24,540 nucleotides of DNA. It comes from Nanobdellota archaeon (GTDB lineage: Archaea > Nanobdellota > Nanobdellia > SCGC-AAA011-G17 > JACPNG01). The DNA lies in contig JBBSWJ010000014.1 of assembly GCA_038046345.1 (NCBI GenBank), positions 1 to 24,540 of the forward strand, read 5' to 3'. The stretch's first letter is position 1. The number at the start of each line of letters is the position of its first letter. This document shows, in pieces, positions 1 through 24,413 of the stretch. Both the position numbers and the translations under genes were made by a program. The notes beneath the pieces were generated by a model. It was not told the origin of the DNA and made no database searches. It saw only the letters and a list, made by a program, of their open reading frames with translations.

Positions 1-409
1 TATCCATATCAATTACATCAATAAAGAAGCTCTGCTTCCCTTTGGTCTTGTATTCCATTTCGTCAAAGCTTATACTATCACTATTCTGCACTTTAAGGCT
101 ATCTACATAAGAACCAACAAGAGAAGCATATTCCCTAATCCATCTTAGGATGGTCATGTGTGAAGCGTTGTGGGGATGGAACACTCCTAGATGCTCTTGA
201 GATTTCCTTAATGATGCTCCAGAAAAGTAAAGATGAATTGCTTGGGTTATTTTGTCAGAGTTATTCTTTTTCTTGAAGAAACCATCATCTACAACAAAGC
301 GTTTTTTACAACCCTTACAGAAGTATCTCTGAATAAGCCCCTTATTCTTAGTTTTTCTTTGTCCCCTTTTTGTGATATTTTCTGAGGAACAATTTTTACA
401 TTTTACCAT
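1..409 (-). mobile_element. N-terminal part of a DDE transposase (IS6/IS240-like, with Zn ribbon and HTH); truncated by the window edge and absent from the ORF track
   Basis: Manual translation from ATG at 409: MVKCKNCSSENITKRGQRKTKNKGLIQRYFCKGCKKRFVVDDGFFKKKNNSDKITQAIHLYFSGASLRKSQEHLGVFHPHNASHMTILRWIREYASLVGSYVDSLKVQNSDSISFDEMEYKTKGKQSFFIDVIDMD. It shows CxxC...CxxC, an HTH (SLRK...TILRWI) and the first catalytic strand FDEM...IDVID, resembling the IS6 DET..K.KG....AVD pattern. The exact family is tentative. Confidence 0.85.
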
Positions 410-420
410 ACTCTATATTA

Positions 421-455
421 GGTACCCGAAGATTATAAATCTTTCGGTTCCCGAA
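421..455 (-). promoter_or_regulatory. Transposase promoter (BRE-TATA, CCGAAAGATTTATAA on minus strand) bracketed by two GGT(A/T)CCCGAA direct-repeat boxes
   Basis: ggtacccgaa at 421-430 and ggttcccgaa at 446-455 flank ttataaat at 433-440. The TATA lies about 24 nt upstream of the ATG at 409. Confidence 0.7.
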
Positions 456-502
456 TTTACCGCGCAGTTAATTTTATATACTAACCTATAATCCTAGAGA
501 AT

Positions 503-1606
503 ATGAGAAAAAAAAGAAAGTTAACATGGGAAAAGCCAGAATATACTAAAGATGAAGTTAATTGGGCTGGAAAAGTAGTGAGTGGTAGAAAAAAAGTCTC
601 TCATGAGGATGAAGAGCGCGCTATGGTTATTTTTGAAAATTGGAGGGCTTGCCATAATTATCCCCTGCATATTTTCTATATGAGACTTAAAAAATATTCA
701 GAAGATTTACATACAAATTCAATAGTTGCCCAACGTCTTAAGCGTACTCCTTCCATTATCCAAAAACTAAAAAGAGGCTATAATAACCATAAGCCTTCTA
801 TGAATCTTTATCAAATGCAGGATATTGGTGGATGTAGAGCTATTGTTCCTAATGTCAAACTTGCAAGAAAATTATATGAAGAAAAATTCTTAAGAGGTGA
901 TTTAAAGCATAAAAAATCAAACCAAAAAGATTATGTCCATTTTCCTAAAGAGGATGGATACAGGGGGCTTCATTTAGTTTATAATTATCAGAGTGATAAG
1001 AATAGGGTAGTATTTAATGACCTTAAGATAGAGATACAAATAAGAACAAAATTACAACATTTGTGGGCTACAGGAATTGAAACAATTGATTTTATTACAC
1101 AACAAGCTATGAAGTTCGGCAAAGGACGTTCTGAATGGTCAGAGTTTTTCTTATTAGTTAGTTCCGCGTTTTCCGATCTTGAAGGATATCCTTTTCTGGA
1201 AAATACTCCTAATAATAAGGATGAATTATACAGAAGAATAAAAGAAAAAGAAGATGAACTCAAGGCAATTGATAAGTTAAAGGGTTTCACTTATGCATTT
1301 AGAGAGTATACTGAACAAAAAAAGAAAAATAAGAAAGAAGCCAAGTTTTTTTTACTTGAATTAAGCATGGTTAAAGATAATAAGAGACTGATCATTACCG
1401 AATATGGTAATTCTGAAGAAGAGAAAGAAAAAGCTATAAAAGATTATGGTATGAAGGAAAAAGAACATAAAGATGATTTAGAGTATGATGTAGTTCTAGT
1501 AAGCGTTGATGATGTAAAAAACCTGAAAAGGGCTTACCCCAAATATTTTGCAGATACAAAAGAACTTATAGAGGAGCTAGATAGAATTATTTCTCTAGTT
1601 AAATAG
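503..1606 (+). CDS. RelA/SpoT-domain small alarmone synthetase, fused CapRel-like toxin-antitoxin (toxSYNTH plus C-terminal autoinhibitory/sensor domain)
   Basis: Synthetase motifs AQRLKR..SI..KL, MQDIGGCR, DY...PK.DGYRGLH and EIQIRT.LQH.WAT. N-terminal YTK..V..AG...WR..H.YPL. A roughly 100-aa C-terminal beta/alpha domain ends VVLVSV...LKRAYPKYFADT (YxxY at 345-348 of 367). No hydrolase, TGS or ACT domains. Confidence 0.88.
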   Translation: MRKKRKLTWEKPEYTKDEVNWAGKVVSGRKKVSHEDEERAMVIFENWRACHNYPLHIFYMRLKKYSEDLHTNSIVAQRLKRTPSIIQKLKRGYNNHKPSMNLYQMQDIGGCRAIVPNVKLARKLYEEKFLRGDLKHKKSNQKDYVHFPKEDGYRGLHLVYNYQSDKNRVVFNDLKIEIQIRTKLQHLWATGIETIDFITQQAMKFGKGRSEWSEFFLLVSSAFSDLEGYPFLENTPNNKDELYRRIKEKEDELKAIDKLKGFTYAFREYTEQKKKNKKEAKFFLLELSMVKDNKRLIITEYGNSEEEKEKAIKDYGMKEKEHKDDLEYDVVLVSVDDVKNLKRAYPKYFADTKELIEELDRIISLVK

Positions 1607-1615
1607 TATTTTTAA

Positions 1616-1777
1616 TTACTCGATATTTGAAATTAGGATTTTTCCTTTTTCTAAAGTTATAACTAAATCTTTCTCCAAAAGCCTACTATTTTCCACTATT
1701 TTTTTAGGAAGGTTTATTCTGTACTTGTAGTAGACTGTGTCACCAACTTTCTTGTCAATCACTTTCATAATCTTCAT
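1616..1777 (-). CDS. AbrB/MazE/SpoVT-like swapped-hairpin DNA-binding protein (53 aa; start moved from 1837 to ATG 1777)
   Basis: YKYRINLPKKIVENSRLLEKDLVITLEKGKILI fits the AbrB pattern (I.LPK.I....L...DL.I......I.I). TATA-like TTAAATA lies about 23 nt upstream of ATG 1777. Confidence 0.7.
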   Translation of the reverse strand: MKIMKVIDKKVGDTVYYKYRINLPKKIVENSRLLEKDLVITLEKGKILISNIE

Positions 1778-1822: not shown

Positions 1823-1882
1823 GACATTACAATGCAATCTTAAAGATAGATTTATATATAAGCAGTTATTTATAGTATTCTA

Positions 1883-2389: not shown

Positions 2390-2998
2390 CTAATAATATT
2401 TAAAATAATCTATATTTGTTGTAAAATGGTTTATTTTCCTTTCAAGGGTTCTTTCTTGTAATTTTAGTTCTTTAAATCTTCTTGCTATCCCCGTGCTTCC
2501 ACCAAAAAATGGTAGTGTAAGCCTTCCTAAAAGAGTGTTTTTATAAGAAAAGCGTTCTTCTTCGTTTCTTCCAATTGCGTGTTGTATCTGCTTTAATTGG
2601 GTGTGCAAGGCAGTAAGCTCATGATTATAATGATCTACTAATATTTCAGAGTATCGTGGTCTTTCAGGCGAATTTGATTGCGATTTAGGTAAAACGTAAG
2701 CGCTGATGCAATTATCCCTCTTGGTTATAAGCTTGTTTATTTCTCCATCAATGTTTTTTTCTTGTCCCTTTAGTTTTTTAAATCTCATTGCTATTCCGTT
2801 TCTTCCACCAAAAAATGGTAGTGTAAGCCTTCCTAAAAGAGTGTTTTTATAAGAAAAGCGTTCTTCTTCGTTTCTTCCAATTGCGTGTTGTATCTGCTTT
2901 AATTGGGTGTGCAAGGCAGTAAGCTCATGATTATAATGATCTACTAATATTTCAGAGTATCGTGGTCTTTCAGGCGAAGATTCCCGATTAGTTTTCAT
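2390..2998 (-). CDS. Hypothetical helical protein made of two ~102-aa tandem units (start moved to ATG 2998)
   Basis: SPERPRYSEIL...LTLPFFGG occurs twice. The promoter CCGAAAGATTTATA (3022-3035, minus strand) sits about 24 nt upstream of ATG 2998 and inside the longer ORF call. Confidence 0.75.
   Translation of the reverse strand: MKTNRESSPERPRYSEILVDHYNHELTALHTQLKQIQHAIGRNEEERFSYKNTLLGRLTLPFFGGRNGIAMRFKKLKGQEKNIDGEINKLITKRDNCISAYVLPKSQSNSPERPRYSEILVDHYNHELTALHTQLKQIQHAIGRNEEERFSYKNTLLGRLTLPFFGGSTGIARRFKELKLQERTLERKINHFTTNIDYFKYY
2496..2978. repeat. 177-bp perfect direct repeat, copies at 2496-2672 and 2802-2978 (period 306 nt)
   Basis: Base-by-base comparison by eye found no mismatch over 177 nt. 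The adjoining parts of the two units are homologous but clearly diverged. Confidence 0.95.
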
Positions 2999-3074
2999 AC
3001 ATTTATTACTCTTTAGTGGTATATAAATCTTTCGGTTGATAAACTGTAAAATAAATATTAAGACCAAACAATAA

Positions 3075-3251: not shown

Positions 3252-3722
3252 ATGAAAGGGGTTGATATTAGGGTAAGCACACCAACACAAGTGCTTGTAG
3301 TTGTTTTATTATTAGCTTCAGTGTTCTTTTTTGGAGCATTTGTACAATCAGTAGTTGGTATAACCACTGGATTTGCTACGAAAGATTCAAGATGCGGAAA
3401 TACTGCTGCATGTGTACAAGTAGTAAGCAGTTTTAAAGATGCAAATATAAAATATGAAATTGTGACACGCGATAGAGAAGATAATATCGTGGATGTAATA
3501 AGAGGAAATGTTGGCAGGGACGGTAAAGGTCCAGTGCATGTCCTTGGTGAAAATGGGTATTCTGAATTAGGTTTACGTAGCAGAACTTCACTGAATGTTT
3601 TTGTTTTAGACGTTGCTGATGAATATTGGGTATCTCGTAAACCAACTACTAGAACTATAAGAGGAAATGTAATGGAAGTTGTGACCTTAAATAGTGACGC
3701 TGTTGATATTAAAAGTAATTAA
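3252..3722 (+). CDS. Membrane-anchored/secreted hypothetical protein, paralog of 1883-2374
   Basis: MKGVDIRVSTPTQVLVVVLLLASVFFFGAFVQS aligns with MREVDLSLSTPRRMVLGVVVLLTVFFAGVYFQS. An ITTGFAT segment follows the helix. TTTATAAATA lies upstream at about 3221. Confidence 0.75.
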   Translation: MKGVDIRVSTPTQVLVVVLLLASVFFFGAFVQSVVGITTGFATKDSRCGNTAACVQVVSSFKDANIKYEIVTRDREDNIVDVIRGNVGRDGKGPVHVLGENGYSELGLRSRTSLNVFVLDVADEYWVSRKPTTRTIRGNVMEVVTLNSDAVDIKSN

Positions 3723-16416: not shown

Positions 16417-19400
16417 GTGATAATGTTGCTGATTAGAACAAAATCAATACTACAAATTTATCTGGTAATAACTATCATAATAATAAGCTCTCTTAATACT
16501 GTATCTGCAGAGCAGACAGGATGTTGTGAAGAAACAGCTTCTGGAGATACATGTTTAGCTACCACCCAGGAGAATTGTAAAGGTAAGTACCAGCTTGGTG
16601 TGCAGTGTGAAGATACAAATGTTTGTAATGTAGGATGCTGTTTAGTAAATAATCAATGCGCCAGCCAAACAGGACAATATTCATGTACACAGCAGGGCGG
16701 AGCTTATTTTGATGCTGAGTGCTCAGGAATAAAAGCATGCCAAGAAGGATGCTGCCAGATAGGAGATAATTTTTTTTTAGCGTCACAACAACAATGCATG
16801 GAGATAACAAGAAATGAAGGCCTAAAAGAAATAACTTTTTTCCCTGAAATAATCGATGAGTTTAGTTGTCTAGAACAAAAGAAAGGCTTAGATGAAGGAT
16901 GCTGTGCAAGCGGAGATATTTGTGCTTATACCACAAGAGAATTATGCGGAGAAGGAATCTTTGAAGAAAAAAAGTGCAGTGATATAGCATTATGCGCATG
17001 CGATGCAAAAGCGTATACTGGATGTGTAGATGAAGATGTATATTATTTTGATAGCTGCGGGAATAAAGAAGAGTTAGCAGAAGATTGTGATTATAATTCC
17101 GGAACTATTTGCAGTGAAGACAAGGAGAATGTACAATGTGTAAGCGTAAATTGTAAACAAACTCTAGACAGGAAAACATTATGGGGCGATGACGTAAGAG
17201 ATAATGATGGTGGCCCAAGAAAGAATGGAGAAAGCTGGTGTCAGTATGATGGTGCTGTTGGTGTTGGAAATGACCTAGTAGGAAGCAGGCATTACAGGCA
17301 TATGTGCGTGAATGGCAAAGAATTAGTTGAACCATGTAAAGATTATAGAGAAGAGTACTGTATTGAAGGAGAAGTAGAGTTTGATGGCGGTGAGGTGTAT
17401 AATCAAGCAAGGTGTATAACAAATAGCTGGGAAGATTGTACAACTGAATGCAATAGCGCTAAAGGGCTGAATGGAAATCAAAGAGATGCAGCTCTTCAAA
17501 AAGATAAAGTTTGTTGTGAAAATCCAGAGAGGAGTTGTTTGTGGAAGGGGGTACTATCATCAGAACTTGAAGCAGCCGCCCAAGCAGGATTAAGAGATCT
17601 TTGCGAAGATCCAGAAACAGGAGAACCGATACCATGTGCAACAATCAGGTCAGCAGAAGATGAAGGGGTCTGTATACCATTAGTACCACCAGGATTAGTG
17701 TTCTGGGAAGAAGATAATGATGGAACGCAGGAACCATCAGCAGATATTGTAGAATTTTGTGATGCAGGAACAAATAGCTGTGAAGTTTTTTTTACAAAAT
17801 CAGTAATGACCGGATATGAATGGGACTGCGCTGGAAACTGTGCATGTTTAGAACCAGAAAACTTCTATGTACCAACACAATCAGCATGTAATGCGTATGG
17901 TGATTGCGGAGTATTTTATAATGTTGCAGGAAAATTAAGCAGTGATGGATATGATTGCTCAACAAGTGATGGATTATGTTATGGAAACATACATGGTTAT
18001 GATTATGACTTTGATTCAATTGATTGGGATCGAGCACTTGGAGGGATTGGTGCATATAGTAAAGCTACACCACTCTCTTTTGGGACTGTAAACCTGGATA
18101 ATAATGTACTAAAATCTATGAAGCTTACTAGTGTTGCATTAGGTGGTGCATTTCTTGTAGGGGCCGTCGCGCTTTATTCAGCGGCAACAGCCCCAGCAGG
18201 CACTAGTGGGATACTTATATCAATAGGAACAAGTCTTGCATCAGCATGTGCAACAACAGCAGCATTCAGTTTTGGTATTCCATGTTTGATAGAAGGTATT
18301 GTAGCTGCAATTATAATAGCAACATTAGCAATACTATCATTTACAGAAGACTCAGACACTTTAGAAATAACAGCAACATGCGCACCATGGCAAGCACCAA
18401 GAGGATCAGAAGATTGTGAGCTATGCAGAGACTCAGAAATATTTGAAAAATTAGGATATGACACATGCAGTGAGTATAGATGTAAATCATTAGGAACAGC
18501 ATGCAAATATGTACAAGAAAATGAAGGAAGCCCAAGAAATCCTTGTTTAGCAAGCAATAGAAATGATGTTTCAGCACCAATAATAAATCCGTATCCGGAA
18601 GTTTTAACAGAAGGTTATAGCATAGAAGAGTATACTAATGGATATGAAATAACACCGATAGTAGATCCGTTTAATCTATTAACATTTGGAATAATAACAG
18701 ATGAACCAGCACAATGCAAGTTCTCAACAACTCCGGGAGTTAAATATGAAGAGATGCCAGCAGATTTTGGAGAGTCATACTTTTCAGAAGAACATGCATT
18801 AAAAATAAATCCAACACCAACAATATTCAATGAATACTATGTAAGATGCGAAGACATAAATGGAAGATCAAATGATGTTGATTATAAAATAGAATTCAGA
18901 GCAGATGACGCACCAGATCTGACACCCCCTATACTATTAGAAACATCAGTTATTAGCGGAGCAAGTGTATTAGCCGGAGTAGAACAATTAGTGGAATTTG
19001 AATTAAATGAACCATCAACATGCACATATGGAACAAATTCAATGCAATGCACGCATCAATCCGGAGAAGCATCATCATTAGCAAAATATGTATGCAAAGC
19101 AAGACTGCAAGTAACAGAAGGAATAAATGAATATAACATAACATGCCAAGACTTTGCTGGAAATAAAAATGCACAATCATACCTTTATGTGTTAGAAGGA
19201 GTGGAAGGAATAACAATAGAATCATTAGGACCAGAAGGAGAGCTTGAAACAAATTTAGTAACATTAGAAATAATAACATCAGGAGCAGCAATATGCAAAT
19301 ATACTTATCAAGGCGAGAAGCAATTTGAAATAACTGGAGAGACTGTACATAATTCAGAATTACCACAATTACAAAAAGGAACATATAATATTCCTGTAAG

Positions 19401-19692
19401 CTGCGAAGATGGTATAGGAACAGTTGTAATAAGTAAAATAAGTTTTATAATAACAAAGGATGATACAGCACCAAAAGTAATGCATTTATTTACAAATGCA
19501 GGAAACCTAATAATAGAAACTGATGAATATTCAATATGTAAATATTCTGATGATGCGTTTGATTTTCAAGATGGAACATTGTTAGATGGAACAGAAAAAG
19601 AACATTCATTAGTTATCTCAGAAGGAAGATATCACATTATTTGTGAAGATGCTTCAGGAAATCTTATGGATGAAATAGTTGTTTACCCATAA
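16417..19692 (+). CDS. Giant secreted Cys-rich protein A with central hydrophobic segments and C-terminal Ig-like repeats
   Basis: Signal peptide ending VSA-EQ; GCC repeats; RKNGESWCQYD...GSRHYRH.C; hydrophobic block at about 18124-18345; PWQAP.G...CE.C; D..PP.I/APKV Ig-like modules. The start could be GTG 16417 or ATG 16423. Confidence 0.85.
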   Translation: MIMLLIRTKSILQIYLVITIIIISSLNTVSAEQTGCCEETASGDTCLATTQENCKGKYQLGVQCEDTNVCNVGCCLVNNQCASQTGQYSCTQQGGAYFDAECSGIKACQEGCCQIGDNFFLASQQQCMEITRNEGLKEITFFPEIIDEFSCLEQKKGLDEGCCASGDICAYTTRELCGEGIFEEKKCSDIALCACDAKAYTGCVDEDVYYFDSCGNKEELAEDCDYNSGTICSEDKENVQCVSVNCKQTLDRKTLWGDDVRDNDGGPRKNGESWCQYDGAVGVGNDLVGSRHYRHMCVNGKELVEPCKDYREEYCIEGEVEFDGGEVYNQARCITNSWEDCTTECNSAKGLNGNQRDAALQKDKVCCENPERSCLWKGVLSSELEAAAQAGLRDLCEDPETGEPIPCATIRSAEDEGVCIPLVPPGLVFWEEDNDGTQEPSADIVEFCDAGTNSCEVFFTKSVMTGYEWDCAGNCACLEPENFYVPTQSACNAYGDCGVFYNVAGKLSSDGYDCSTSDGLCYGNIHGYDYDFDSIDWDRALGGIGAYSKATPLSFGTVNLDNNVLKSMKLTSVALGGAFLVGAVALYSAATAPAGTSGILISIGTSLASACATTAAFSFGIPCLIEGIVAAIIIATLAILSFTEDSDTLEITATCAPWQAPRGSEDCELCRDSEIFEKLGYDTCSEYRCKSLGTACKYVQENEGSPRNPCLASNRNDVSAPIINPYPEVLTEGYSIEEYTNGYEITPIVDPFNLLTFGIITDEPAQCKFSTTPGVKYEEMPADFGESYFSEEHALKINPTPTIFNEYYVRCEDINGRSNDVDYKIEFRADDAPDLTPPILLETSVISGASVLAGVEQLVEFELNEPSTCTYGTNSMQCTHQSGEASSLAKYVCKARLQVTEGINEYNITCQDFAGNKNAQSYLYVLEGVEGITIESLGPEGELETNLVTLEIITSGAAICKYTYQGEKQFEITGETVHNSELPQLQKGTYNIPVSCEDGIGTVVISKISFIITKDDTAPKVMHLFTNAGNLIIETDEYSICKYSDDAFDFQDGTLLDGTEKEHSLVISEGRYHIICEDASGNLMDEIVVYP

Positions 19693-20555: not shown

Positions 20556-23500
20556 ATGAAAACACAATATATACTGATAATTGTATTGATTTTGTTAGCT
20601 ATGCCTATATCATTAGGACAAACAGATAGCAAGGCATGCTGTGAATTAACAAGGGCTGGAGATACTTGTGTGTTTACTGACTTCTCAAATTGTGATACTA
20701 ATGGAAGAGTAGCATTTACATCATGTGAACAAACTAATTTTTGCCAGTTAGGATGTTGTTTTTCTTCAGAAGAAGGAAGTTGTTCAAGAAATACTCCAAG
20801 AGCAAGCTGCGAGCAAGCAACAGGAACAAGTTTTGTAAATAATCCAACATGCGATATTGCTGCATGCCAAAGAGGATGCTGTTTGATAGGAGATGAAGCA
20901 TTTTTTGTAACGCAAACACAATGCAAACAAGTAGGAAGCCAATTCCCAGATGCGAATGTCGAGTATAACCCAGCATTAAGCACAGAAGCATCATGCTTAG
21001 AAGCATCAAGAAGTTTAGAGGTGGGTTGTTGTGTAACTGATGACCTTGCAACATTTACAACAAGAGAAAGCTGCAATCAAGGAAATGAAGCCGTTGGAAC
21101 AAATGAAAGTAAAGTAAGCAAATCAGGATTTTACCCAAACATGTTATGCAGCAATGATAGATTACAATCTGGATGCGCAAGACAACACCACACAGAATGC
21201 TACGATGGAAAGGTGTACTGGTTTGATTCATGCGGCAATAGAGAAAATATTTACGATGCAAACAAAGACAAAAGCTACAATCGTGGAATAGTATTAAGCG
21301 TAGAAGAATCATGCATTGCTGGAACAAATGATCCTAGCTGTGGTAATTGTGATTACTTCAAAGGAAATTTATGCGGTGAAGCACCAAGAGATGTTAAACC
21401 TGATAGTGGTGACTTAGCATGTATAAGCTTAGACTGTTCAGATACTGAATCATTTGAGTTCAGCCCAAGCTCTGGAGGAGAAAAAAAGCATGGAGAAAGC
21501 TGGTGCGTATATGATTATCAGCCAGGAGCTGGAAGTGACAGGCCTGGATCAAGGCATTATAGACATTCATGCATAGCAGGAAAAGAAATGGTGGAAGACT
21601 GCAGGGATTATAGAGAAGATATATGCATACAAGGGGTTATAGGGCAGGAAGCATTAATGACGTTAGAAGGTTTAAGAACTAATGGCGGTGATTACGTACA
21701 AGCAGCATGCAGGGATAATAGATGGGAAGAATGTATAAAATTAAGCAATAAAGGAGAATGTGACAATGAAGATTTATTTGACTGTTTCTGGCTTGAAGGA
21801 ACGTTAACTAATATTACAAAACCATTTACCACCAATGTTGGACGAGAAGAAGTTGTAACACCACCTGGTGCATGTGTACCACAAGTACCACCAGGATTAG
21901 TGCACTGGAATGATGAAACAGAGAATGTAGACTTAGGGAAGGAAAATGTACCTGCATTACAAGAAGCAAAAAATCCAATTGGAGATCAACCTGAAAGAGA
22001 TGCAACAGCTATATGCGCAGAAGCAACAAGGGAATGCGTTGTAGTGTATGAACAAGGAGGATGGGAAAAACTATTCGGTGACAAAGGAAAATGCGTAAGT
22101 AATTGTCATTGTGAAAAAAGAGACTGGATACTAGCAGTAGCAGATTACTGCCAAGCACAAGGAGACTGCGGAGCAGATTATAATATCAGAGGGGTTCTAA
22201 CACTTGAAGGATTTAACATTGAAAATCCTAAAAATAGTGATGATAGACTGACAGCTAAAGAAGTAGATAAAAGACCTGACTGCAAAAAAGGTGGATGCAG
22301 GGAATCGAAAGATTTTGATGAGCCAAGTTTCTTTAGCAGACTGGATGATAATAAAGGATGGATTGGATTATTAGGATTAGCAGCAAGTGGAACGTATTCT
22401 AGTTTAGCTGGTGGAGAATTTGTAGCTGGAGTGATAGGCGGACCTGCATATTATGGTCCTGGTTTGTTAAAAGGTGCAGGCATCGTTGCAGAAGAAATTT
22501 TTGGTACATCAGAATCATTAACTAATCTGATCTCACCTACCCATGAAAGTAGTCTTGGGAAACTTTTAAATGTCAAAGCACCAGCAGGTGTAGCAGCAGA
22601 AGCAGCATTAACAACAAAATTAGCAACAGAAGCAGCATTAACAAACGCACTAGCAGTAGCAGTAGACGCAGAAGTGGCATTTAAAGAAGCAACAGCTGCA
22701 GTACTAGACGCGCAAACAGCATTTGCAGAAGAATTATTTTCCACCTCACCAACAGCATTTGAGGAAGCAGGAGTGGCATTAACAAACGCACGAGCAGTAG
22801 CAGTAGACGCAGAAGTGGCATTAACAAACGCACGAGCAGTAGCAGCAAACGCCCAAACAGCATTTGCGGAAGCAGAAGCTGCCAGTACCAAAGGGGTAGA
22901 GTCTGCAGCATTAGGATCTGGTCATATTTTTACTATACTCAACATGGCAGCATGGGCGTACACTATTTATTCATTAGTTGACACTTTCTTTACGGATTAT
23001 GATTCATACACAATAACAACAACATGTTCACCATGGCAAGCACCAAGAGGAGGAAGACTATGTGAAACATGCAATGAACCAGGAAAACCATGTTCAGAAT
23101 ATAAATGCAGAAGCCTAGGACAAACATGCAGATTAATTAATTCAGGAACAAGTGATGAAAGATGCATTAACCTACACCCAAATGACGTAACAGCACCAAA
23201 AATAACACCAAATAAAGATATTTTAACAAAAGGATATCAAGTAAGAGAAATAAATGATGCTTTAGGGTTTGGAGTAGAACCAGATGTAGATCCATTCACA
23301 CCATTACTTGTAGGAATAAATATCAATGAACCAGCAACATGCAAGTATGACCTAAATGCTTCAACATCTTACGACCAAATGAGATATAACTTTGGAGTAA
23401 GCCAATTCCTGTATAACCAATCATTATTAGTAAGCTTCCCAGCGGAATTAGCAAGTGAAGATGCATTAAGAATAACAAATGGCGGAAGATACAATTTATA

Positions 23501-24413
23501 TGTAAAATGCCAAGATGCATCAGGAAACAAAAACGATAAAGATTATCTAATAAGATTCAAAATAAAACCAGGACCGGACCTAACACCACCAATAATAGAA
23601 GCAACAAGTATACCTGATGGAGGAAGCATAATAGCTGGAGTAGACAGCACCGGATTCAGCTTATTCTTAAATGAACCAGCAACATGCAAGTACGGAACAA
23701 ATGATTTAGTATATGAAGAATTACAAAACGAATTCTCATGCACAAAATCAGGATTCCAAACAGTAAGCAATTTCTTAAGCGCATACGAATGTACAACAGA
23801 ACTAGAAAACATAATAGAAGGAGAAAATAATTACTATTTTAGATGCAAAGACAAAGCAGGAAATGTAAACGAAGAAGGAATTAAGTTTAAACTATTTGGA
23901 ACAAAACCATTAGAAATATTAAGCTTCAGCCCTGACAGAGAAGAATTTGCAATAACAAATGTAACATTACAAGCAGAAACAGGAGTCGGAGCTGAAAATG
24001 GAAACGCAGTATGCGGTTATACTCTTGGTGGTGTAACATTTGAGTTTGCAAGCACTGGAGGAACAACACATACAGAACAATTAAGCGGCTTAGCAAGCGG
24101 GGAGTACACAATACCAGTAATATGTAATGATATAGCTGGAAACGAAGCAAAAGTTGTAATGTCTTTTGTGATAAGAAGAGATGAGTTTCCACCAGTACTA
24201 ACACAAGTTTTTAGCAGTGACGGGATATTGCATATTGAAACCAATGAAGAAACAATATGCGAAGTATCTGATAGAACTTTCGAGTTTGGAAGCGGAATAG
24301 CAATGACTGGTGATGGAACAAAAGAACATGAGGCAGTAATTGAAGGAGAAAGCTTGTACATATTATGCCAAGATATCTTTGAGAATGAATTGAGAATAAC
24401 TGTGTTTCCTTGA
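20556..24413 (+). CDS. Giant secreted Cys-rich protein B, paralog of 16417-19692, with an Ala-rich coiled-coil insert
   Basis: It has the same ordered modules as protein A (ACCE, GCC repeats, KKHGESWC.YD...GSRHYRH.C, VPPGLV.W, A.GDCG..YN..G, PWQAPRGG..CE.C, PDLTPPII). Confidence 0.85.
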   Translation: MKTQYILIIVLILLAMPISLGQTDSKACCELTRAGDTCVFTDFSNCDTNGRVAFTSCEQTNFCQLGCCFSSEEGSCSRNTPRASCEQATGTSFVNNPTCDIAACQRGCCLIGDEAFFVTQTQCKQVGSQFPDANVEYNPALSTEASCLEASRSLEVGCCVTDDLATFTTRESCNQGNEAVGTNESKVSKSGFYPNMLCSNDRLQSGCARQHHTECYDGKVYWFDSCGNRENIYDANKDKSYNRGIVLSVEESCIAGTNDPSCGNCDYFKGNLCGEAPRDVKPDSGDLACISLDCSDTESFEFSPSSGGEKKHGESWCVYDYQPGAGSDRPGSRHYRHSCIAGKEMVEDCRDYREDICIQGVIGQEALMTLEGLRTNGGDYVQAACRDNRWEECIKLSNKGECDNEDLFDCFWLEGTLTNITKPFTTNVGREEVVTPPGACVPQVPPGLVHWNDETENVDLGKENVPALQEAKNPIGDQPERDATAICAEATRECVVVYEQGGWEKLFGDKGKCVSNCHCEKRDWILAVADYCQAQGDCGADYNIRGVLTLEGFNIENPKNSDDRLTAKEVDKRPDCKKGGCRESKDFDEPSFFSRLDDNKGWIGLLGLAASGTYSSLAGGEFVAGVIGGPAYYGPGLLKGAGIVAEEIFGTSESLTNLISPTHESSLGKLLNVKAPAGVAAEAALTTKLATEAALTNALAVAVDAEVAFKEATAAVLDAQTAFAEELFSTSPTAFEEAGVALTNARAVAVDAEVALTNARAVAANAQTAFAEAEAASTKGVESAALGSGHIFTILNMAAWAYTIYSLVDTFFTDYDSYTITTTCSPWQAPRGGRLCETCNEPGKPCSEYKCRSLGQTCRLINSGTSDERCINLHPNDVTAPKITPNKDILTKGYQVREINDALGFGVEPDVDPFTPLLVGININEPATCKYDLNASTSYDQMRYNFGVSQFLYNQSLLVSFPAELASEDALRITNGGRYNLYVKCQDASGNKNDKDYLIRFKIKPGPDLTPPIIEATSIPDGGSIIAGVDSTGFSLFLNEPATCKYGTNDLVYEELQNEFSCTKSGFQTVSNFLSAYECTTELENIIEGENNYYFRCKDKAGNVNEEGIKFKLFGTKPLEILSFSPDREEFAITNVTLQAETGVGAENGNAVCGYTLGGVTFEFASTGGTTHTEQLSGLASGEYTIPVICNDIAGNEAKVVMSFVIRRDEFPPVLTQVFSSDGILHIETNEETICEVSDRTFEFGSGIAMTGDGTKEHEAVIEGESLYILCQDIFENELRITVFP
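22591..22870 (+). repeat. Intragenic near-identical tandem repeats encoding Ala-rich 10- and 14-residue units
   Basis: tagca(g/a)cagaagcagcattaacaa at 22591 and 22621 (period 30). agtggcattaacaaacgcacgagcagtagcag at 22772 and 22814 (period 42). A 47-nt block at 22635 and 22776 has one mismatch. Confidence 0.9.

Follow-up and report, generated by a model that had tools for sequence, protein, structure and literature searches.

A CapRel-family fused toxSAS toxin-antitoxin, most likely an antiviral sensor, encoded in the genome of a DPANN archaeon

CapRel-SJ46 (Salmonella phage SJ46 / E. coli) is a fused toxSAS toxin-antitoxin that acts as an antiphage sensor (PMC9712102, PMC11578894). In this protein, the Y155A exchange of the G-loop tyrosine abolishes defence, R79 and R116 coordinate ATP, the YXXY motif is made up of Y352 and Y355, and substitutions of the interface residues A77, V338, L339, A341 or A351 lead to a constitutively toxic protein (PMC9712102). 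FaRel2 and CapRel-SJ46 pyrophosphorylate the CCA ends of tRNA, and donor-site regulation through a pseudo-zinc-finger domain (pZFD) and a YXXY motif is reported to accompany toxSAS enzymes that target tRNA, not those that make alarmones (PMC11782079). In the literature that we searched, CapRel is described from bacteria and their phages only, and no description of an archaeal CapRel, from DPANN archaea or others, was found. The stretch of DNA analysed here, called the window, is an entire contig (JBBSWJ010000014.1, 24,540 nt) of the draft genome of a Nanobdellota archaeon (GCA_038046345.1). An ATG-started open reading frame (ORF) at 503..1606 on the plus strand (P0001 in the ORF listing) encodes a protein of 367 aa which, by every sequence and structure criterion that could be tested, is a CapRel-family fused toxSAS-antitoxin. 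From the analogy with the characterised family members, we consider it probable that this single-polypeptide toxin-antitoxin serves as an abortive-infection antiviral sensor of its DPANN host. The gene and the parts of it that matter for the comparison are located as follows.

503..1606, plus strand: CapRel-family fused toxSAS-antitoxin (Pfam RelA_SpoT, PADLOC PDC-S33, PDB 7ZTB/9ERV, Foldseek)
719..1102, plus strand: predicted toxSYNTH pyrophosphokinase core, aa 73-200, with R78, R112, the G-loop Y153 and E177/Q179/R181 of the EIQIRT motif (alignment with CapRel-SJ46, roles of the residues from PMC9712102)
1346..1504, plus strand: predicted pZFD antitoxin/sensor domain, aa 282-334 (AlphaFold2 secondary structure; V331 and L332 correspond to V338 and L339 of CapRel-SJ46)
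1535..1546, plus strand: putative YXXY neutralisation motif YPKY (Y345-x-x-Y348), preceded by A344 and aligned with AYPNYF of CapRel-SJ46 (A351, Y352, Y355)

The best sequence matches in the PDB are 7ZTB, Salmonella CapRel alone, and 9ERV, CapRel bound to Bas11 Gp54, with an E value of 2e-44 and residues 14-363 of the query aligned to residues 15-370 of the chain. The next matches are the small alarmone synthetases (SAS) YjbM, RelP and YwaC, at E 1e-9 or weaker and in the catalytic core only (residues ~49-197). The NCBIfam equivalog model for YjbM (GTPPhKinYjbM) scores 48 bits, against a cut-off of 320. Because the CapRel match extends over the full length and the SAS match is confined to the core, with the YjbM score far below its cut-off, the sequence comparisons support the conclusion that the protein is not a RelQ/RelP-type alarmone synthetase. 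RelQ/RelP enzymes (YjbM/YwaC) share the RelA_SpoT nucleotidyltransferase core with it (E 1e-9 to 1e-6), but they are stand-alone proteins of ~210-250 aa that match the equivalog over their whole length, make (p)ppGpp, and lack a C-terminal pZFD or YXXY motif. Here, ~170 further residues form a C-terminal module of the CapRel type. The protein does not have the architecture of a long RSH enzyme (HD hydrolase, synthetase, TGS and ACT domains) either. In the Pfam search, a RelA_SpoT synthetase domain at residues 77-193 (E 8.6e-16) is the only domain and an HD hydrolase domain is absent, as had been concluded from the bare sequence.

The PADLOC profile PDC-S33 matches the protein over its full length (profile positions 2-342 of 349, E 1.5e-105, 351 bits). 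The name stands for a computationally defined, single-gene 'phage defence candidate', and no mention of it was found in the searched literature. However, CapRel-SJ46 itself, taken from the phage record NC_031129, also matches PDC-S33 (7e-87, 290 bits), and the profile is therefore, in practice, the CapRel-family model of PADLOC. An earlier sequence-only reading of this DNA had attributed to the protein the size and layout of CapRel-SJ46, and had pointed to profile and structure searches as a check. Both came out in its favour: to the PDB and PDC-S33 matches, a Foldseek search adds 7ZTB as the top hit.

For this search, an AlphaFold2 model was built on 120 homologues (alignment A1), with a predicted local distance difference test score (pLDDT) of 88.5 and a predicted template modelling score (pTM) of 0.81. 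Besides the toxSYNTH sheet, this confident model contains three long anchor helices and a beta-beta-alpha-beta module, with one short helix over YPKY and another helix at the C-terminus, which again is the layout of CapRel. In the C-terminal domain, strands are predicted at residues 282-290, 293-301 and 328-334, a helix at 305-321 and C-terminal helices at 338-364, and the model thus reproduces the beta-beta-helix-beta arrangement that had been proposed for this part of the protein. The predicted topology is the one described for the pZFD of CapRel-SJ46 in PMC9712102. Foldseek ranks 7ZTB and 9ERV first, with template modelling (TM) scores of 0.69-0.74 over 361-366 columns, and aligns SAS structures with the catalytic half of the model only (TMq 0.34-0.40; TMt 0.57-0.73 on the core). 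The root-mean-square deviation of the model from the open CapRel crystal form is 5.7-6.9 A, which is compatible with, but no proof of, a different orientation of the domains.

The motifs on which the sequence-only reading had relied are all present: EDGYRGLH at residues 150-157, including Y153, EIQIRT at 177-182, FFLLEL at 282-287, RLIITEY at 295-301, YDVVLVSV at 328-335, and YPKY at 345-348, 19 residues from the C-terminal end. In a MAFFT alignment, the functional residues of CapRel-SJ46 can be assigned to positions in the archaeal protein one by one. A77, R79, R116 and Y155 of the catalytic domain correspond to A76, R78, R112 and Y153, and V338, L339, A341, A351, Y352 and Y355 of the C-terminal part correspond to V331, L332, S334, A344, Y345 and Y348. 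The three tyrosines that had been singled out as key residues, Y153, Y345 and Y348, are thus the exact alignment equivalents of Y155, Y352 and Y355. Among the mapped catalytic and autoinhibition residues, the exchange of A341 for S334 is the only change. It is a conservative swap of small residues, at a position that is occupied by glycine in 92% of the clade to which the protein belongs (an archaea-dominated clade, described below).

Within 84 members of this clade, R78, R112, Y153, E177, Q179, R181, V331, Y345 and Y348 are conserved in all sequences, L332 in 99% and A344 in 98%. Both YXXY tyrosines are also invariant in the 120-sequence alignment A1. Intact catalytic motifs and autoinhibitory YXXY residues are therefore not a peculiarity of the one protein, but kept throughout the clade, and the 98-100% conservation of these positions indicates purifying selection on catalysis as well as on autoinhibition.

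Taken together, the protein resembles CapRel-SJ46 in length (367 versus 373 aa), in the order of its parts (N-terminal helices, toxSYNTH, anchor helices, pZFD, YXXY switch and C-terminal helix), in the identity of the G-loop tyrosine, both ATP-coordinating arginines, both YXXY tyrosines and the V/L/A scaffold, in matching the same PDC-S33 profile, and in being encoded by a single gene without a partner gene in a mobile context. It differs from CapRel-SJ46 in sequence (32% identity), in its archaeal host, in belonging to a separate clade (SH-aLRT 100) that is dominated by DPANN archaea and Methanoperedens, and in being associated with an IS6-type transposase, whereas CapRel-SJ46 resides in a prophage; the protein of the archaeal clade is known from sequence. 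The bipartite toxSAS pairs FaRel2:ATfaRel2, unfused CapRel:ATcapRel and PhRel:ATphRel are related in that a toxSYNTH domain is neutralised by a pZFD-type antitoxin, with YXXY at the ATP donor site. In these pairs, however, toxin and antitoxin are the products of separate genes in one operon, whereas here they form one polypeptide without a conserved operon partner.

By analogy with these systems, we infer what the enzyme does, that it acts on tRNA, how it is autoinhibited, what kind of trigger releases it and what part it plays in defence, as follows. In the resting state, the C-terminal pZFD would lie folded against the toxSYNTH domain at the N-terminus. V331, L332 and A344 would keep the YPKY motif (Y345, Y348) in position, and the motif would insert between R78 and R112 and block the ATP (pyrophosphate donor) site. 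The pZFD would be bound by a foreign protein, presumably that of an archaeal virus, and thereby kept off the active site. The freed enzyme would transfer pyrophosphate from ATP to the 3' CCA ends of tRNAs, while Y153 stacks against the acceptor adenine. The pyrophosphorylated tRNAs could not be aminoacylated or support translation, and the infected cell would stop making virus. We favour tRNA as the target because control by pZFD and YXXY is reported to be coupled to toxSAS enzymes that act on translation (PMC11782079). The scheme can be tested in E. coli, since it involves a single gene and a portable target, the tRNA CCA end. This end is universal, and the mechanism would therefore carry over to archaea.

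The genome that carries the gene comprises 821 kb in 35 contigs, with an estimated completeness of 97% and a contamination of 0.03%. The host is archaeal. On the same contig there are genes for an SPFH protein, ScpB, a glycosyltransferase, RpoL, AMMECR1, TFS and PCNA, among which ScpB, RpoL, TFS and PCNA lie downstream of the CapRel-like gene. A separate ENA assembly (L007) contains an identical CapRel-like gene and extends further upstream, into an intact IS240-type transposase gene, a MazE-like gene, aRF1 and a class I aminoacyl-tRNA synthetase. The downstream junction is reproduced in two Logan assemblies (L008, L009). The archaeal setting that had been assumed for the gene is thus borne out by the genes of the contig, by aRF1 upstream and by independent assemblies. 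Within the archaea, the host is a Woesearchaeota-like member of the DPANN group, in agreement with the names attached to the closest homologues.

CapRel-like genes are distributed patchily among the relatives of this organism. Homologues with 44-53% identity are present in 5 of 60 related genomes, all from other families of the same order, and in none of the 16 genomes from the same family. In species-representative genomes, a quick search found at least 583 loci that encode a relative of the protein. The best 80 of these (43-53% identity), which were inspected for taxonomy, are mostly archaeal, with Woesearchaeota, Nanoarchaeota, Micrarchaeota, Pacearchaeota, Aenigmatarchaeota, Nanohaloarchaea and bins of Methanoperedens/Methanosarcinales, and a few of them carry bacterial labels. 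One of the 80 is located in a closed Woesearchaeota chromosome (CP060218), and homologues are also found deep inside long archaeal contigs. As to the bacterial labels, at least one, that of locus L028, goes with a genuine bacterial context, with an adjacent gene for trigger factor. Locus L021 (JAHYJW010000005.1) is labelled 'Patescibacteria group bacterium', but its CapRel-like protein is nearly identical to one from a Woesearchaeota bin (L029), and a neighbouring gene encodes a 239-aa RNA polymerase subunit of the Rpb3/RpoD type, without the C-terminal domain of bacterial alpha subunits. For these two reasons, the label is probably wrong.

In a first tree with 113 rows, an SJ46-type proteobacterial clade (Shimodaira-Hasegawa-like approximate likelihood ratio test, SH-aLRT, 93) is set apart from the archaea-dominated clade (92), in which the taxonomy is thoroughly mixed. 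When 28 CapRels from viral contigs were added, the archaea-dominated clade remained a unit (SH-aLRT 100), sister (91) to a group of 16 CapRels from IMG/VR, with the SJ46 clade again separate (99). The trees were rooted on a very long branch, the synthetase domain of long RSH enzymes, and cover CapRel without PhRel, FaRel and other toxSAS subfamilies. In this frame, the archaea-dominated clade is placed inside the range of CapRels sampled from bacteria, from phages and from viral contigs. The branching order is in keeping with an early entry into archaea and extensive lateral spread afterwards. Horizontal spread is indicated by the patchy distribution, by the IS6/IS240-type transposase next to the gene and by the scrambled taxonomy of the tree, and to this extent the earlier suggestion of a horizontally acquired gene holds. 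The gene is not, however, an isolated bacterial import, but belongs to a large archaea-dominated clade.

Several observations weigh against a role as a sensor of viral proteins, or at least do not sit easily with it. The residues of CapRel-SJ46 that contact the capsid trigger are not kept in the archaeal protein: L280 falls into a gap of the alignment and L307 is replaced by R295. The loss of these contacts is what would be expected if the trigger differs. In the archaea-dominated clade, the variability of the pZFD exceeds that of the catalytic core by a factor of only ~1.5, versus ~3.4 in the SJ46-type set, in a comparison between samples of different depth. A virus sensor would be expected to show the signature of an arms race, which is thus weaker here. 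Only 1 of 62 homologues from viral contigs belongs to the archaea-dominated clade. Finally, the same genome encodes a long RSH enzyme with a hydrolase domain, and some link of the CapRel-like protein to alarmone metabolism is possible. The single viral contig in the clade (L101, IMGVR_UViG_GVMAG-S-1041346-124_000001; 48% identity) is labelled as a giant-virus metagenome-assembled genome, and may be a mis-binned archaeal contig.

The antiviral reading has to be weighed against others, the most serious of which arises from the surroundings of the gene. The gene travels horizontally, and in this lineage it appears to do so together with an IS6/IS240-type transposase. The flanking features in the window are the following.

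2..409, minus strand: IS6/IS240-type DDE transposase, N-terminal 136 aa with zinc ribbon, cut by the contig end (match to the transposase of L007)
410..502, no strand assigned: divergent intergenic region of 93 bp between the transposase gene and the CapRel-like gene (read from the sequence)
1619..1777, minus strand: 53-aa ORF, convergent with the CapRel-like gene (homologues at the same place in related loci)
1824..1845, plus strand: right copy of a 22-nt direct repeat with the exact 15-nt core AATGCAATCTTAAAG (left copy at L007 7416-7437, family D3)

At 100% identity, the product of 2..409 matches the first 136 residues of the complete 295-aa transposase of L007 (7687-8574; Pfam DDE_Tnp_IS240). 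A divergently oriented transposase homologue (37-50% identity) is located 94-150 bp upstream of the CapRel-like gene in the window and in the related loci L063, L065 and L070. On the other side, the 53-aa ORF has intact homologues (48-65% identity) at the same position in L003, L063, L065 and L070, and in all these loci, as in the window, it lies 5-25 bp past the CapRel stop codon. Pfam MazE_antitoxin matches two of five members of the ORF family, at E 0.024, and an atlas MazE cluster is matched with 0.88, but a profile search against the PDB gave nothing, and the assignment of the ORF as AbrB/MazE-like is a lead from sequence, not a result. A PADLOC scan of the transposase, the 53-aa ORF and the upstream MazE-like gene returned no match. 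In one further locus, the copy of the 53-aa ORF (L002:1290-1490), next to an intact CapRel-like gene, is interrupted by an in-frame stop, lacks a start codon and is probably decaying.

It could be argued from this arrangement that the gene is a selfish addiction or stabilisation module, carried as cargo of an IS6/IS240-type transposon that consists of the transposase, the CapRel-like gene and the AbrB/MazE-like ORF, and that it mainly secures the retention of this element rather than defending the host against viruses. Four genomes have both the transposase and the 53-aa ORF beside the CapRel-like gene, and since the proteins are only 37-67% identical, the linkage looks old. In L007, the two copies of the 22-nt repeat, 2573 bp apart, enclose exactly the transposase, the CapRel-like gene and the 53-aa ORF, and the repeat could be the border of a mobile cassette. 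The contig in the draft genome breaks inside the transposase gene, transposase fragments also occur elsewhere in this genome, and the draft contains the AATGCAATCTTAAAG core once. A repeat enclosing the unit as in L007 was not found in L063 or L070, however, which makes it a single-locus observation. A search for terminal inverted repeats around the transposase or the three-gene unit (L007, L063 and L070) yielded only low-complexity, AT-rich pairs that were not convincing.

The reach of this association is limited as well. The transposase is present in 4 of 86 loci and the 53-aa ORF in 5-6 of 86, and most members of the clade stand alone, in varied chromosomal contexts. When the 670 ORFs within 4 kb of the gene in the 86 loci were clustered, they fell into 584 clusters, the largest of which spans 6 loci. 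There is thus no conserved partner gene, as expected for a self-contained one-gene system. Moreover, a fused toxin-antitoxin cannot make use of the classic loss of a labile antitoxin after segregation. Carriage on mobile elements is typical of genuine defence genes too, CapRel-SJ46 being prophage-borne, and is compatible with an antiviral sensor. The proposal that the CapRel-like gene is cargo of an IS6-type element in one subclade has moderate support, but we regard it as unlikely that selfish retention accounts for the gene.

The intergenic regions offer some hints on regulation. A TATA-like element, TTTTATATA, lies at ~470-478, ~25-30 nt before the ATG of the CapRel-like gene, and is a possible leaderless archaeal promoter. 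The word CCCGAAGA occurs at 425-432 and in only one other exact copy, at 1817, so that there is one copy in each of the intergenic regions that flank the gene. As an operator motif it was rejected, because with one mismatch allowed there were 4 matches versus 5.9 expected. In L070 (2352-2433), a 28-nt direct repeat with 96% identity, the copies 54 nt apart, is located between the transposase gene and the CapRel-like gene. The word TTACCGC in this repeat region is shared with the intergenic region between transposase and CapRel-like gene of the window (~457-463), and may be a common regulatory site.

An alternative that finds less support is that the protein is a regulated small alarmone synthetase, which would make (p)ppGpp or (pp)pApp under the control of a C-terminal allosteric switch, with the hydrolase of a resident long RSH enzyme clearing the product. 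The protein has the RelA_SpoT fold and an intact catalytic core, and a suitable partner exists. The sequence-only reading had started from the view that archaea generally lack the stringent response, but for this genome the premise is wrong: on another contig (C15; L091:109-2025, minus strand), directly beside archaeal rpoA'', there is a gene for a 638-aa long RSH with HD_4, RelA_SpoT, TGS and ACT domains, of which the HD_4 domain could degrade alarmones. Full-length homologues of this enzyme (40-64% identity) are common in the order, being encoded by 27 of 60 related genomes, among them 12 of the 16 from the same family. RelA/SpoT annotations have been reported for 41.7% of Woesearchaeota, as a bacterial acquisition and without a separation of long RSH and CapRel-type proteins (PMC8407392).

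The conclusion that the CapRel-like protein is not a ppGpp regulator nevertheless stands, as it depends on architecture and homology and not on the absence of a stringent response. The similarity to SAS enzymes that stops at the core and the low YjbM score have been described above, and both the whole architecture and the predicted YXXY lock of the donor site are those of tRNA-targeting toxSAS enzymes (PMC11782079). Nor do CapRel-like genes co-occur consistently with a long RSH: one genome (G029) has the former, but no match to the latter. Alarmone synthesis by this protein is therefore, in our judgement, very unlikely. Lastly, the gene might be taken for contamination from bacteria or phages, or for the product of a chimeric join, given its position within 1.6 kb of a contig end, beside a repeated element and in a metagenome-assembled genome. 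This view is effectively refuted by the same junctions in the separate assemblies, by the archaeal genes on both sides, by a guanine-plus-cytosine content of the gene region (0.30-0.34) that is uniform with the rest of the contig, and by homologues that lie well within long archaeal contigs or on a closed Woesearchaeota chromosome.

The remainder of the window contains some further ORFs of note. At 2390-3067 on the minus strand, there is an ORF of 225 aa with an internal tandem duplication of ~100 aa, in which the stretch SPERPRYSEILVDHYNHELTALHTQLKQIQHAIGRNEEERFSYKNTLLGRLTLPFFGG appears twice; it has no significant Pfam match. It is flanked by ORFs of 163 and 156 aa on the plus strand (1883-2374 and 3252-3722), which have similar hydrophobic, signal-like N-termini and belong to no Pfam family. 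Their sequences suggest a pair of paralogous proteins that are secreted or anchored in the membrane. Further downstream on the plus strand, two large ORFs of 1091 aa (16417-19692) and 1285 aa (20556-24413) give only weak Pfam signals (Big_13, DUF4625). They probably encode surface proteins. Large surface proteins are often seen in DPANN archaea.

The system described here is of a known kind. What is new is its setting, a large and conserved clade that is dominated by archaea and includes DPANN archaea with genomes of less than 1 Mb. One practical consequence concerns genome annotation: the label "RelA/SpoT" in DPANN genomes mixes two things, a long Rel enzyme and a defence gene of the toxin type. 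CapRel is among the best understood cases of direct sensing of viral proteins in prokaryotic immunity, and an archaea-dominated, apparently selected CapRel clade would bring sensing of this kind into a second domain of life, including the ultra-small, symbiotic DPANN archaea. The viruses and the defences of these organisms are barely known, and the sensor domain could serve as bait for proteins of DPANN viruses. Beyond the reading of the single gene, it is tempting to speculate that CapRel-type immunity works in archaea. The clade, whose members in DPANN phyla and Methanoperedens number in the dozens at least and probably in the hundreds, might sense proteins of archaeal viruses through the pZFD and stop translation by tRNA pyrophosphorylation, and one subclade might have become cargo of an IS6-type transposon, together with an AbrB/MazE-like regulator. 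We put this forward tentatively, as a proposal that is rather doubtful in its full extent. If it were true, the relatively low variability of the sensor domain would suggest that the trigger is conserved too, and would thus open a biochemical route to the proteins of the largely unknown viruses of DPANN archaea.

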